Both the position numbers and the translations under genes were made by a program. 4,919 bases of DNA from a virus (lineage: Duplodnaviria > Heunggongvirae > Uroviricota > Caudoviricetes): positions 1 through 4,919 of IMG/VR virus record IMGVR_UViG_2913123054_000007. One strand, written 5' to 3'. The notes beneath the pieces were generated by a model. The model worked only from the letters and a program-made list of their open reading frames with translations, was not told where the DNA came from and did no database searches. This document shows positions 415 through 4,919 of this stretch, piece after piece (position 1 is the stretch's first letter; every line of letters begins with the position of its first letter).

Positions 415-479
415 CTTTTAAAACGATGATTAAGACGCTTTTTTCTGACCACTTTTCGTGTGGACTGGAAAACCTGGCG

Positions 480-498
480 TCGTCATCTATTCTTAAAG
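480..498 (+). promoter_or_regulatory. Candidate sigma-S-type promoter for sdsR
   Basis: CTATTCTTAA at 486-495 resembles the extended sigma-S -10 consensus (C at -13 followed by TAYACT-like hexamer). No clear -35, which is common for RpoS promoters. Predicted start about 499-501. Confidence 0.5.
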
Positions 499-603
499 GG
501 CTAGGCAACTAAGCCTGCATTAATGCCAACTTTTAGCGCACGGCTCTCTCCCAAGAGCCATTTCCCTGGACCGAATACAGGAATCGTATTCGGTCTTTTT
601 TTA
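499..603 (+). ncRNA. sdsR: SdsR (RyeB) RpoS-dependent small RNA
   Basis: About 104 nt downstream of yebY with three stem-loops: GCATTAATGC region (~515-527), GGCTCT/AGAGCC (543-560), and a perfect 10-bp terminator hairpin GACCGAATAC/GTATTCGGTC (569-595) followed by T7 (596-602). The sequence and the position next to yebY match what I recall of sdsR. Ends are approximate (+/-3 nt). Confidence 0.65.
580..602. other. Candidate attL core (last ~23 bp of sdsR)
   Basis: Published work that I recall (Salmonella/E. coli ryeA/ryeB locus as an insertion hot spot) places the phage attachment core in the last ~23 bp of ryeB. That corresponds to GGAATCGTATTCGGTCTTTTTTT here, and int ends 130 bp away at 734. 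The exact core limits cannot be fixed without attR or an empty site. Confidence 0.4.
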
Positions 604-614
604 ATTGTATTTAA

Positions 615-627
615 AATCAATTGGTTG
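615..627 (+). promoter_or_regulatory. Possible IHF binding site in the att arm
   Basis: AATCAATTGGTTG matches the IHF consensus WATCAANNNNTTR, in an AT-rich segment between the candidate core and int. Confidence 0.3.
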
Positions 628-636
628 CAAACGTCT

Positions 637-668
637 CCCCGAAATTCCCCGAAATTTACTCGAATTTC
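637..668. repeat. Tandem 10-bp direct repeats CCCCGAAATT x2 plus a degenerate third copy (candidate arm-type Int sites)
   Basis: CCCCGAAATT at 637-646 and 647-656, then ACTCGAATTTC at 658-668. They lie between the candidate core and the int stop, where arm-type sites are expected. Confidence 0.3.
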
Positions 669-733
669 TGTATTCCGGTCTTTTTTGGTTATATCACAAC
701 CAAAATACATTTAACAATCCATTTACGTTAAAA

Positions 734-1810
734 TCAGAGCAGTAAGTACGTTTTTTCTCTCTCATCAAGATACATTTTTGTTGTCTTCTCCGATGTGTGG
801 CCAAGTAGACGCTGAGCAAATTCTTCTCCACATGTCTCTTTGTACAATCGTCCAGCCAGACTTCTGATCTCGTGAAAAGTTGGTGGGTTTTCACTGAACT
901 GGATACCTGTTAATTTTCTGGCTGCGACAAATTTTTTTGTCAGGCCATCCGGGTGAATGCTGCCGTCAGGGCTGTTTTTTCTAATCCCGGCACTGATTAG
1001 ATAATCCCCCCTACTTACCAGGCGGCACCGTTCAACTATTGTACCAAGCCGTAATCCAGCGACCGGAAGGTTGAGTGACAGGGGGATAGCAATCATCATT
1101 CCCGTCTTAATTTGCCTGATGTGGAGACGATCATCATAAATATCACTGAACCGCATATTCGTTATGTCTTCGCGACGTTGTCCTGTTACAAGGGCTAAGT
1201 CCATAGCTAATGGGAACCATGCCGGAAGTTGGTCTGCTGCCTCCCTGATGCAGTTGTATGTCTTTAGTTTCAGTCGTTCTCTTGTAACTACTATTTTCGG
1301 TGCTCTTGTTGGCGTTACTGGATTTTGAGATATACGTCCTTCAACAATGGCCTCGCGGAACATATCAGATAACACAGAACGCATTGATCCTGCCATCGTG
1401 TTTTTCCCTCCTTCAATCCACGAATCAAGAAACTCGGCAATATGGCGAGTGGTTATTTCTGTCAGTAAAATCCCTCCCAGTTTTTCTTTTATTGTCTCCA
1501 GTTGATTTACCCGAATTTTATAAGTATTTCTGGACACTTTTCTCCTTATAAGAATCGTTTTGTAACGTTCGATCCAGTTTGACATAGTAAATGAATCGCC
1601 CCCTTTAAGTTTTTCAATTAAGGCTACAGGAGAGTAGGTTTTGTATATATAATGATTGGCTTCAATTGCCTGTGCTACCGCATCTCTTTTTGAAATTTTA
1701 CCTAGCGTAAATTCTTCTTTTGTCAGAGGATTGCGCCAGTAGTATGCTTTGTCCCTTCTTCGATATGTTAGGTTTCTAGGCAAATTGGGATCGTATTTTT
1801 TCCGCTGCAT
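734..1810 (-). CDS. int: Lambda-family tyrosine integrase
   Basis: 358 aa, ATG at 1810, stop TGA 734-736. It aligns along its length with lambda Int from memory (PNL..YYxRxPxTxKEF N-terminal arm-binding region; [11 protein letters not shown] vs lambda HELRSLSARLY; LLGH box; catalytic Tyr in KMYLDER near the C-terminus). Confidence 0.95.
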
Positions 1811-2057
1811 TTTTTAATTTCTCCAGTAACGGACTGTCTCTCCCTTGCCGACCAGTAGGCTGATGGTTTGTTATATCGGTATCAAACTTATTTGGGTTGA
1901 TATAGAATGCCTCCGGATCCACCCTGTAACTCCTCCCGTGCAGTTCAGGTGCGGGATAAATATTTCCATTCCTGGCCCACCGTCTCAGCGTTGATATTGA
2001 TGGTGGGTTATCCGGATATCTGAGTTTCCCCCACGTTTTGAGTGTCACAAGATTCAT
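1776..2057 (-). CDS. xis: Excisionase
   Basis: TLRRWARNGNIYPAPELHGRSYRV resembles the lambda Xis winged-helix region (TVRRWVRECRIFPPPVKDGREYLF). It overlaps the int start by 35 nt, as in lambda. I chose ATG at 2057 (MNLVTLK...) because AAGAGGT lies 7 nt upstream; the track's ATG at 2063 sits only 1 nt from that Shine-Dalgarno. Confidence 0.8.
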   Translation of the reverse strand: MNLVTLKTWGKLRYPDNPPSISTLRRWARNGNIYPAPELHGRSYRVDPEAFYINPNKFDTDITNHQPTGRQGRDSPLLEKLKNAAEKIRSQFA

Positions 2058-2079
2058 TGCCATACCTCTTACGATATGA

Positions 2080-2163: not shown

Positions 2164-2352
2164 TCACGAGGACTGAAGTTGCTCGCAATTAAAATTTATC
2201 AGTTTTACTTTCTGCTCTCTGGAAACGCCTGCTTCTTTTTTACCTGAGAGCATTTTTTCGCATTCTGATTTGGTTAACTTTGTTTTTGAGTACCTTGTCC
2301 AGTTGGTAGGAGAACCACCTTCCTTTTCAATAGTGGTGGTAATTTTATACAT
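2164..2352 (-). CDS. Small basic hypothetical protein (62 aa), possibly YdaC-like by synteny
   Basis: ATG at 2352 is preceded by GGAGGTG at the right spacing; stop TGA 2164-2166. The track's 86-aa version starts inside lar and lacks an RBS. Its position between xis and lar mirrors Rac (intR-xisR-ydaC-lar). I cannot confirm sequence homology from memory. Confidence 0.55.
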   Translation of the reverse strand: MYKITTTIEKEGGSPTNWTRYSKTKLTKSECEKMLSGKKEAGVSREQKVKLINFNCEQLQSS

Positions 2353-2575
2353 GAACACCTCCATTATTATTTCCAGTGGTTCGTTTATTCCATCTTTCGA
2401 GTGCTTCTTTTTCACTTCCACCATAACCGGTTCGGGATTTGCATCCGTTACACTTCGCTCGGTAATATCCTGAAATGGCTTTCACCGTTACTGATGGACA
2501 ACCACAAAATGGACATGGTTTGACTTTTGTGTATCGAACTGGTTTTTCTCCTGTGAGCTTTGTGGCTGCGCTCAT
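2345..2575 (-). CDS. lar: Lar-family restriction alleviation protein (zinc ribbon)
   Basis: 76 aa. CPFCG...CNGC forms a C-x2-C-x17-C-x2-C motif followed by EALERWNKR, typical of the Lar family as I recall it. The start ATG (2575-2573) overlaps the exo stop TGA (2574-2572) as ATGA. Confidence 0.75.
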
Positions 2576-4039: not shown

Positions 4040-4339
4040 TTATACCTCTGAATCAATATCAACCTGGTGACGAGCAATGGTTTCAACCATGTACCGGATG
4101 TGCTCCGCCACGCGTTCCTGAAATTCAACATCGTTATCAAATGCGCGACTGATTGCCTGTTTGCTGGCACCGTGGCGTTGCAAATGGTCGATGCAGAGCG
4201 ATTCAAACAGGTGCTGGGGCAGACCTTTTTCCAGGTCGTCCGCCAGTTCCGTTTCTTTTTCTTCGCGAACGATCTTCTGGTAGTGGCGTGACCATGCCAG
4301 CTCTTCAATGCGATCAAAAATCGGGCATGTGCTCATCAT
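4040..4339 (-). CDS. gam: Gam, RecBCD inhibitor (short GamS-like form)
   Basis: 99 aa. ...[20 protein letters not shown]...[20 protein letters not shown] matches the lambda Gam C-terminal ~95 residues from memory. The start (ATG 4339 or 4336) lies inside the 3' end of the upstream ORF. Confidence 0.9.
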
Positions 4340-4919
4340 CCGTTACCCCAAAATTTTCAAGTTTGTTTGCGATCATCATTGCAATATCCGGAATTAATGG
4401 CGCTGAGGCTATACCTGCAGGATTCGCACATAAACCGTAAACCGCCGCAATCACCACTTGTCTTTTCCAGTCGAGTTTTTCTAATGATGAAGCTGCTGCT
4501 TCGCCAGTTTCATCACTGCAATCGCGATGCGGATCGCTGCCAGCATTCTCATTGTGCGTATGTTCTGTGCCTTCCATTTCCACCGGATCATTTTCCTTAG
4601 CTTCAACCTGATTCTCTTCATCGAATGTTTCCTGGTATGTTGCGTCGCCCATCACCGCACCACAGTCAGGGCAGTTATCCCCGCCAGTCTGACCGCAGGC
4701 ATTGCAGACTATTTCCGGTTCCTGTTGCACTACTGGCTCAGGTTGTTTCACATCCGGGCTGGTTTTTTCCGTTTCTGGCGTGTTTTGTTCCGTTTCTGGC
4801 TGGTTCTGGTACACAGAATCGCGAGTCTGGATCCCCTTAACCCATTTCGGATCGTTCGGGTCGCTAATTCCGTCAACAAATTCACCACGTGATGCAGCAA
4901 GCAATTTATCGGCATCGAC
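4314..4919 (-). CDS. Acidic, low-complexity protein with CxxC-x7-CxxC zinc knuckle; function unknown (5'-partial)
   Basis: The frame is open to the window edge: the track's 'M' at 4904 is a TTG and the reading frame continues (..[14 protein letters not shown]..). Stop TGA 4314-4316. About 40 D/E versus about 12 K/R by hand count. It has a PETExxT 7-aa repeat, [16 protein letters not shown] (~4660-4708) and a more hydrophobic C-terminal ~50 aa. I recognise no family. Confidence 0.6.

Follow-up and report, generated by a model that had tools for sequence, protein, structure and literature searches.

Predicted arm-type integrase sites and a predicted IHF site in the P' arm of a lambdoid prophage at the sdsR/ryeB terminator

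The tandem repeats at 636-667 of the window, which is the whole analysed stretch of 4,919 nucleotides, were analysed together with the adjacent IHF-like sequence at 615-627. On the evidence of sequence and comparison, the repeats are very probably the arm-type integrase sites P'1, P'2 and P'3, and 615-627 an IHF site of the H' type, within a lambda-type attachment site that has its own arm specificity. Bases 597-686 are quite likely the P' arm of this attachment site, seen here as attL, of a prophage that recombined inside the terminator hairpin of the sdsR/ryeB gene. The architecture is that of the known lambda-type attP, and the arm-site consensus and an apparent code in a hairpin of the integrase are new.

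By alignment, the window contains an attL junction, at which a lambdoid prophage has entered the sdsR/ryeB terminator hairpin. The left part holds yebY (1-342) and two overlapping host small RNA genes, sdsR/ryeB (503..602, plus strand; Rfam RF00111, 118 bits, full length), whose terminator hairpin coincides with the attachment core, and the antisense gene sraC/ryeA (462-606, minus strand; RF00101). On the minus strand these are followed by int (734..1810, 358 aa, with its stop codon at 734), the excisionase gene xis (1776..2063; Pfam PF07825, E 1.6e-14), the RalR/RalA toxin-antitoxin pair, exo, bet and gam. The host flank was only 88-93% identical to E. coli, and in genomes with an identical YebY the empty site has pphA directly after yebY. 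A tRNA was sought in the window as integration target and none was found. Further along, a RalR-like toxin ORF (2164-2424, minus strand) lies between xis and exo in a Rac prophage-like arrangement and is accompanied by a full-length RalA antitoxin sRNA (2168-2346, plus strand; RF02694, 205.8 bits). A 21-bp tandem repeat at 4762-4800 (1.9 copies, 94% matches) is located inside a 196-aa ORF (4314-4904, minus strand) and encodes a repeated PETE-type peptide.

Four sequences were aligned over the core, namely the window (attL), a same-species empty site (attB, L151), an attR of E. coli (L147) and the attP of a phage record (PP818812.1, L001). The segment common to phage and host was CGAA(A/T)ACAGGAATCGT(A/G)TTCGGTCT. 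In attL the left side has the host's variant and the right side that of the phage, and attR shows the reverse order, which places the exchange within 577-587, ACAGGAATCGT. The window first departs from the same-species empty site at position 597, so phage DNA starts no later than this base, and homology to empty E. coli sites stops near 603. By this alignment the Rho-independent terminator of sdsR (569-595) is the recombination core, with its stems as the inverted core half-sites and its 7-nt loop as the overlap. The candidate half-site B, GACCGAATAC (569..578, plus strand), is host-derived, forms the left stem and makes a perfect 10-bp inverted repeat with 586-595; the phage attP carries TGACGAAAAC at this position. 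The candidate half-site C', GTATTCGGTC (586..595, plus strand), forms the right stem. Between them the overlap or crossover region AGGAATC (579..585, plus strand) occupies the loop, lies within the 6-8 bp range of such overlaps and is identical in attP and attB. As the matching right half is supplied by the phage, the sdsR terminator is retained. The ryeA gene loses its own 5' part and its promoter upon insertion. The phage record used for attP is named "Actinobacillus phage vB_Apl-pPE4"; it is 97.7% identical to the enterobacterial prophage end found here and its attP fits the enterobacterial sdsR terminator, so the Actinobacillus host label looks doubtful.

The same target has been described before. 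According to PMC7380047 and PMC3333887, which summarise Balbontin et al. 2008, the Salmonella phage PhiW104 integrates at the last 23 bp of ryeB, and this 3' end of ryeB/sdsR, internal to ryeA, is also the target of other elements; Salmonella relatives of the present Int (72-74% identical) were located at that site. Expression of the ryeA and ryeB genes has been reported to be altered by lysogenisation at the ryeB site (PMC7380047). The core and the sRNA effects of PhiW104-type elements are described in these two papers, and arm-type and IHF sites do not figure in that account. A description of arm sites for the ryeB/sdsR-integrating phages of this Int family was not found in the literature searched, although existing reports are possible.

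The integrase is a lambda-family heterobivalent tyrosine integrase. It was 38% identical to lambda Int and about 41% identical to HK022 Int, the closest experimentally studied Int among the phage-record matches. HK022 has a lambda-type att organisation with lambda-like arm sites, and its core and attB differ from those found here. The Pfam domains PF09003 (28.1 bits, cut-off 22), PF22022 and PF00589 were detected, and the protein carries an N-terminal arm-DNA-binding domain besides the core-binding and catalytic domains. The N-terminus matched the structures of the lambda arm-binding domain (PDB 1KJK/2WCC, E 1.2e-4), and in the AlphaFold model it forms a three-stranded sheet with a helix (strands 14-17, 22-26 and 33-37, helix 41-58). 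The best fold matches of Int were the full-length lambda Int structures 1Z1B, 1Z1G and 5J0N.

As the sequence-only reading had placed them, the repeats and the IHF match follow the recombination core (569-595) and precede the int stop codon (734). The two perfect 10-bp direct repeats of that reading are exact: CCCCGAAATT occurs in tandem at 637-646 and 647-656, and Tandem Repeats Finder reported 636-656 with period 10, 2.1 copies and 100% matches. A perfect tandem duplication of period 10 arose in 16 of 5000 shuffles of the window (0.3%). These two are the only perfect copies in the window, and loose matches (at most three mismatches) numbered 46 against 44 expected. The third repeat, ACTCGAATTT at 658-667, had been called degenerate. 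It is indeed present and matches at 7 of 10 positions with a spacing of 11, not 10, but the comparison with relatives shows a conserved third site with a different tail rather than a decayed copy; other phages have this AGTA tail as their main one. In terms of predicted arm-type sites, all on the plus strand, P'1 is TCCCCGAAATT (int-sense AATTTCGGGGA) at 636..646, P'2 is the same TCCCCGAAATT at 646..656, and P'3 is TACTCGAATTT (int-sense AAATTCGAGTA) at 657..667. The comparison of arms resolves the repeat into a conserved core CGAA(A/T)(A/T) and CCCC as the phage-specific part.

The relatives comprised 61 genome loci (one genome per species) and 80 viral contigs, nearly all at the sdsR terminator. 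Int identity in the 61 loci was 35-93% by best tblastn segment, and at least 45% among those anchored on the sdsR core. The P' arms were anchored on the overlap without gaps and searched for TTCG, the int-sense form of CGAA. The motif stood at att positions +58, +68 and +79 (+/-1) in 96-97 of the 99 distinct P' arms, which came from about 50 species of many genera with Ints 45-97% identical. In plus-strand terms, CGAA of P'1 (+58..+61) and of P'2 (+68..+71) was kept in 97 arms each and that of P'3 (+79..+82) in 96, and the surrounding sequence had freely diverged. Many of the 99 arms are close E. coli variants, and the pattern holds equally in the one-per-species set. Recurrence of the repeats in related phages with related Ints, which had been set beforehand as a test of the arm-site reading, was thereby observed.

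Copies were also sought at the other end of the prophage, as the same reading had advised, and were present. The P arm lies at attR, outside the window, and eight P arms were obtained from true attP sites or tandem-prophage junctions (L001, L097, L127, L141, L146, L020, L021, L052). TTCG in the same orientation occurred at -144 in seven of the eight and at -146 in the eighth. Four arms had a copy at -133, and L146 as a fifth had it at -132; a copy at -123 was present in four, with -124 in L146. The attR of the E. coli lysogen (L147) holds TCCCGAAATT at -150..-141 and ACTCGAAAAA at -129..-120. Repeated arm-type sequences distinct from the core were thus found in both arms, with three P' sites and two to three P-arm sites. 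Within one phage, the tails of the P arm were often unlike those of the P' arm. Beside the P-arm sites is a conserved stretch of the ATTCAATTAGTTA type, which resembles an IHF site with one mismatch.

The exact IHF consensus match of the sequence-only reading was reproduced at 615-627 (plus strand), where AATCAATTGGTTG fits WATCAANNNNTTR, and it is the sole match in the window. The expected number was 0.29, and since 46 of 200 shuffles gave at least one match, the match alone is not significant; what lends it weight is where it lies and that it is conserved. With TTTTTTTAATTGTATTTAA upstream, the predicted IHF site has the consensus together with an A/T-rich 5' tract. It lies between the core and the arm sites at +33..+45 from the overlap centre, as the equivalent of lambda H', and this placing of a predicted bending-protein site was conserved in relatives. 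There an IHF-like site was kept in either of two fixed placements, the lambda-like one (+33..+45) or an inverted one (+20..+32), and the predicted dyad is near +32/33 in both. Among 52 related loci, 17 had the exact consensus, 34 had at most one mismatch and 49 at most two, compared with 2.4% having at most two mismatches at random placements in the same loci. The consensus had the lambda-like orientation in the Escherichia/Salmonella group and the inverted one in the Serratia/Yersinia/Pectobacterium group.

The geometry was compared with lambda attP (NC_001416), offsets being counted from the overlap centre (582 in the window). The IHF consensus occupies +33..+45 in both, as TATCAATTTGTTG in lambda H' and as the AATCAATTGGTTG match in the window, and the site letters are nearly alike (ATCAATTGGTTGCAA in the window, ATCAATTTGTTGCAA in lambda). 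The three repeats (637-646, 647-656 and 658-667) span +55..+85 and lambda P'1-P'3 span +53..+84, with lambda P'1 at +53..+63. Also as in lambda, the heterobivalent Int has the same three domains, a 7-bp overlap lies between inverted core half-sites, and a distal P-arm site is found near -144, lambda P1 being at -144..-132. The arm sequence differs, being (tail)CGAA(A/T)(A/T) here and C/AAGTCACTAT in lambda. With at most two mismatches, the lambda/HK022 arm consensus C/AAGTCACTAT had no match in 480-760, and its five matches in the window were all elsewhere and at chance level. The repeat is accordingly unlike the lambda consensus, as had been noted from the letters. The absence of that consensus from the att region places this site outside the lambda/HK022 arm-specificity group and, as the sequence-only reading had further predicted, suggests a different arm specificity of Int. 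Unlike lambda, the P-arm sites here form a tandem array in one orientation (-123, -133, -144), and no inverted P2-like site was seen in the eight P arms. Further differences are an extra C'-like element at +88..+104, the use of an sRNA-gene terminator hairpin as core, and the flipping of the IHF site in many relatives of this Int with the dyad in place.

The tails of the arm sites were then related to the integrase. The three to four bases beside CGAA were alike among the sites of one phage and different between phages, and they followed the Int residue that aligns with D20, which belongs to the beta1-beta2 hairpin of the N-terminal domain. Arginine at this residue went with the tail GACA, tyrosine with TG(G/T)A, glycine with AGTA, valine with ATAA, aspartate with (A/G)GGA and serine with GA(A/G)A. 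The same pairing occurred in up to seven independent clusters of the C-terminal domain, and four classes occurred within one cluster. Every Int column was scanned in 36 representatives of less than 90% identity, and D20 ranked first for P'2, P'3 and P'1 with permutation z of 12.2, 10.8 and 8.5; R19 took second place for P'2 and P'3 (7.0 and 6.5). All other Int columns stayed at about 5 or below, and the permutation ignores phylogeny, so the absolute z-scores are inflated and the meaningful part is D20 against all other columns. The codons of the hairpin turn, R18-R19-D20-K21 (1748..1759, minus strand), are a candidate specificity determinant in the arm-binding domain. In the pairs L012/L021 and L015/L016 the N-domains differ almost only in the hairpin, and the tails differ. 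As the coding region of the C-terminal domain separates the hairpin codons from the P' arm, simple linkage is a poor explanation. The pair L126/L134 was considered as a natural swap of the hairpin alone and rejected, because alignment showed the whole int-attP cassette to be exchanged; it is thereby uninformative, the informative pairs being the two named above. The lambda hairpin is said to contact bases, according to the work on 2WCC and 1Z1B.

These co-variation data bear on the proposal of additional core-type sites, in which the core-binding and catalytic domains of Int, and not its N-terminal domain, would hold the repeats. TTCGG is common to the repeats and the core half-site GTATTCGGTC, which formally allows some binding by the core-binding domain, and a C' copy adjoins the repeats at 668-686. 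The proposal was nevertheless judged very unlikely, as the tails vary by phage (GACA, TGTA, ATAA and others) against an invariant core, the top co-varying residues are in the N-domain hairpin with no column of the core-binding domain near them, and position and number equal those of lambda P'1-P'3. The adjoining copy itself is a fourth conserved element, CTGTATTCCGGTCTTTTTT (668..686, plus strand), a near copy of C' and its T-run (586-602) that forms the direct repeat D1 with 586-610 and directly follows P'3. In most relatives it is present as AAAAGACCGAATAT at the fixed position att +88..+104. Core and element change together in L024, where each has GAGTA, and also in L023, whose integration site is different; compared with the predicted cores of L044/L045, which have a different core, the element gave no clear match, and no significant RNA fold was found at this element. 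It may represent one more core-type site, or else an arm-type site in inverted orientation.

A role in transcription was given a similarly small probability. The region would then hold a phage promoter or operator that acts on the truncated RyeA/SraC of lysogens, or would serve as terminator for int or for sdsR read-through, which would suit the reported change of ryeA/ryeB expression by lysogenisation at this site (PMC7380047). A promoter-like TTTGCA-16-TACAAT (minus strand, 631..604, 9/12 match) does occur in the phage DNA, and it is placed to start the truncated RyeA/SraC near 597-606. It lies over the IHF site and not over the repeats, however, and with 0.8 such matches expected per region it is not above chance. 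The folds of 630-692 on either strand were no better than those of shuffles (z -0.28 and -0.44), and a transcriptional role leaves the P-arm copies and the Int co-variation unexplained.

That the repeats bind a factor other than Int (the excisionase, Fis, a phage regulator or the like) was considered very improbable indeed. Tandem direct repeats are typical of Xis sites too, and xis adjoins int. The lambda Xis sites, on the other hand, are in the P arm and not in the P' arm (PMC4880445). The Xis columns remained at background, the best reaching z 4.7 against 12.2 for Int D20, and L126 and L134 share an identical Xis while their tails differ. The last alternative, a functionless chance or slippage duplication in AT-rich intergenic DNA, is suggested by the presence of just two perfect copies and the chance-level number of loose matches and has a negligible likelihood, given the rarity of such tandems in shuffles, the CGAA core at three positions in nearly all arms of many genera with diverged flanks, and related loci that, with Int identity down to 45%, are not recent copies of one element.

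The reading of the repeats as arm-type Int sites beside a DNA-bending site, put forward from the letters alone, is therefore favoured by geometry, conservation, P-arm copies and co-variation taken together. Lambda uses IHF at H' to fold its P' arm over the Int tetramer, and in attL P'1 and P'2 bridge to C' and B, P'3 being used for integration (PMC4880445). By this analogy we infer the binding, bending and bridging of the present site. IHF on 615-627 would bend the DNA sharply around a point about 32 bp away from the crossover and bring P'1 (636-646), P'2 (646-656) and P'3 (657-667) back over the core. Each P' site would be held by the small N-terminal arm-binding domain of one Int protomer, whose large C-terminal domain would clamp a core half-site (569-578 or 586-595) and cut at the edges of the 7-bp overlap (579-585). 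For excision P'1 and P'2 would bridge to C' and B in attL, and integration would use all three P' sites and one P-arm site. Xis would work with Int on the P arm. The conserved CGAA(A/T)(A/T) is common to the whole Int family, and the adjacent three to four bases (CCCC here) would be read by the beta1-beta2 hairpin, above all by D20.

A broader proposal is tentative and somewhat doubtful at present. The integrases using the sdsR core may have diverged into seven or more classes of arm-site specificity, determined for the most part by one or two residues in the beta-hairpin of the N-domain, which would amount to a switchable code (residue 20: R/GAC, Y/TG, G/AGT, V/ATA, D/GGG, S/GA) giving orthogonal intasomes. 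Tandem prophages at one sdsR site, having P'-core-P junctions between them, were observed as L012/L021 (Serratia montpellierensis), L041/L052 (S. aquatilis) and L020 with its neighbour (Yersinia thracica). The neighbours in all three arrays belonged to different tail classes, an outcome also likely by chance.

The finding itself belongs to the usual make-up of a lambda-like prophage junction, as arm sites and a bend are required by every such integrase. It provides a precise map of the attachment site for very widespread enterobacterial prophages which enter and alter the SdsR/RyeA small-RNA locus. In the relatives, variants of the integrase hairpin come matched with variants of the arm sites on a core that stays constant, and this natural series could reveal how arm specificity is encoded and could yield orthogonal Int/att pairs for genome engineering. 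If the proposed code is true, phages sharing one attB, tandem prophages included, would integrate and excise without cross-talk.
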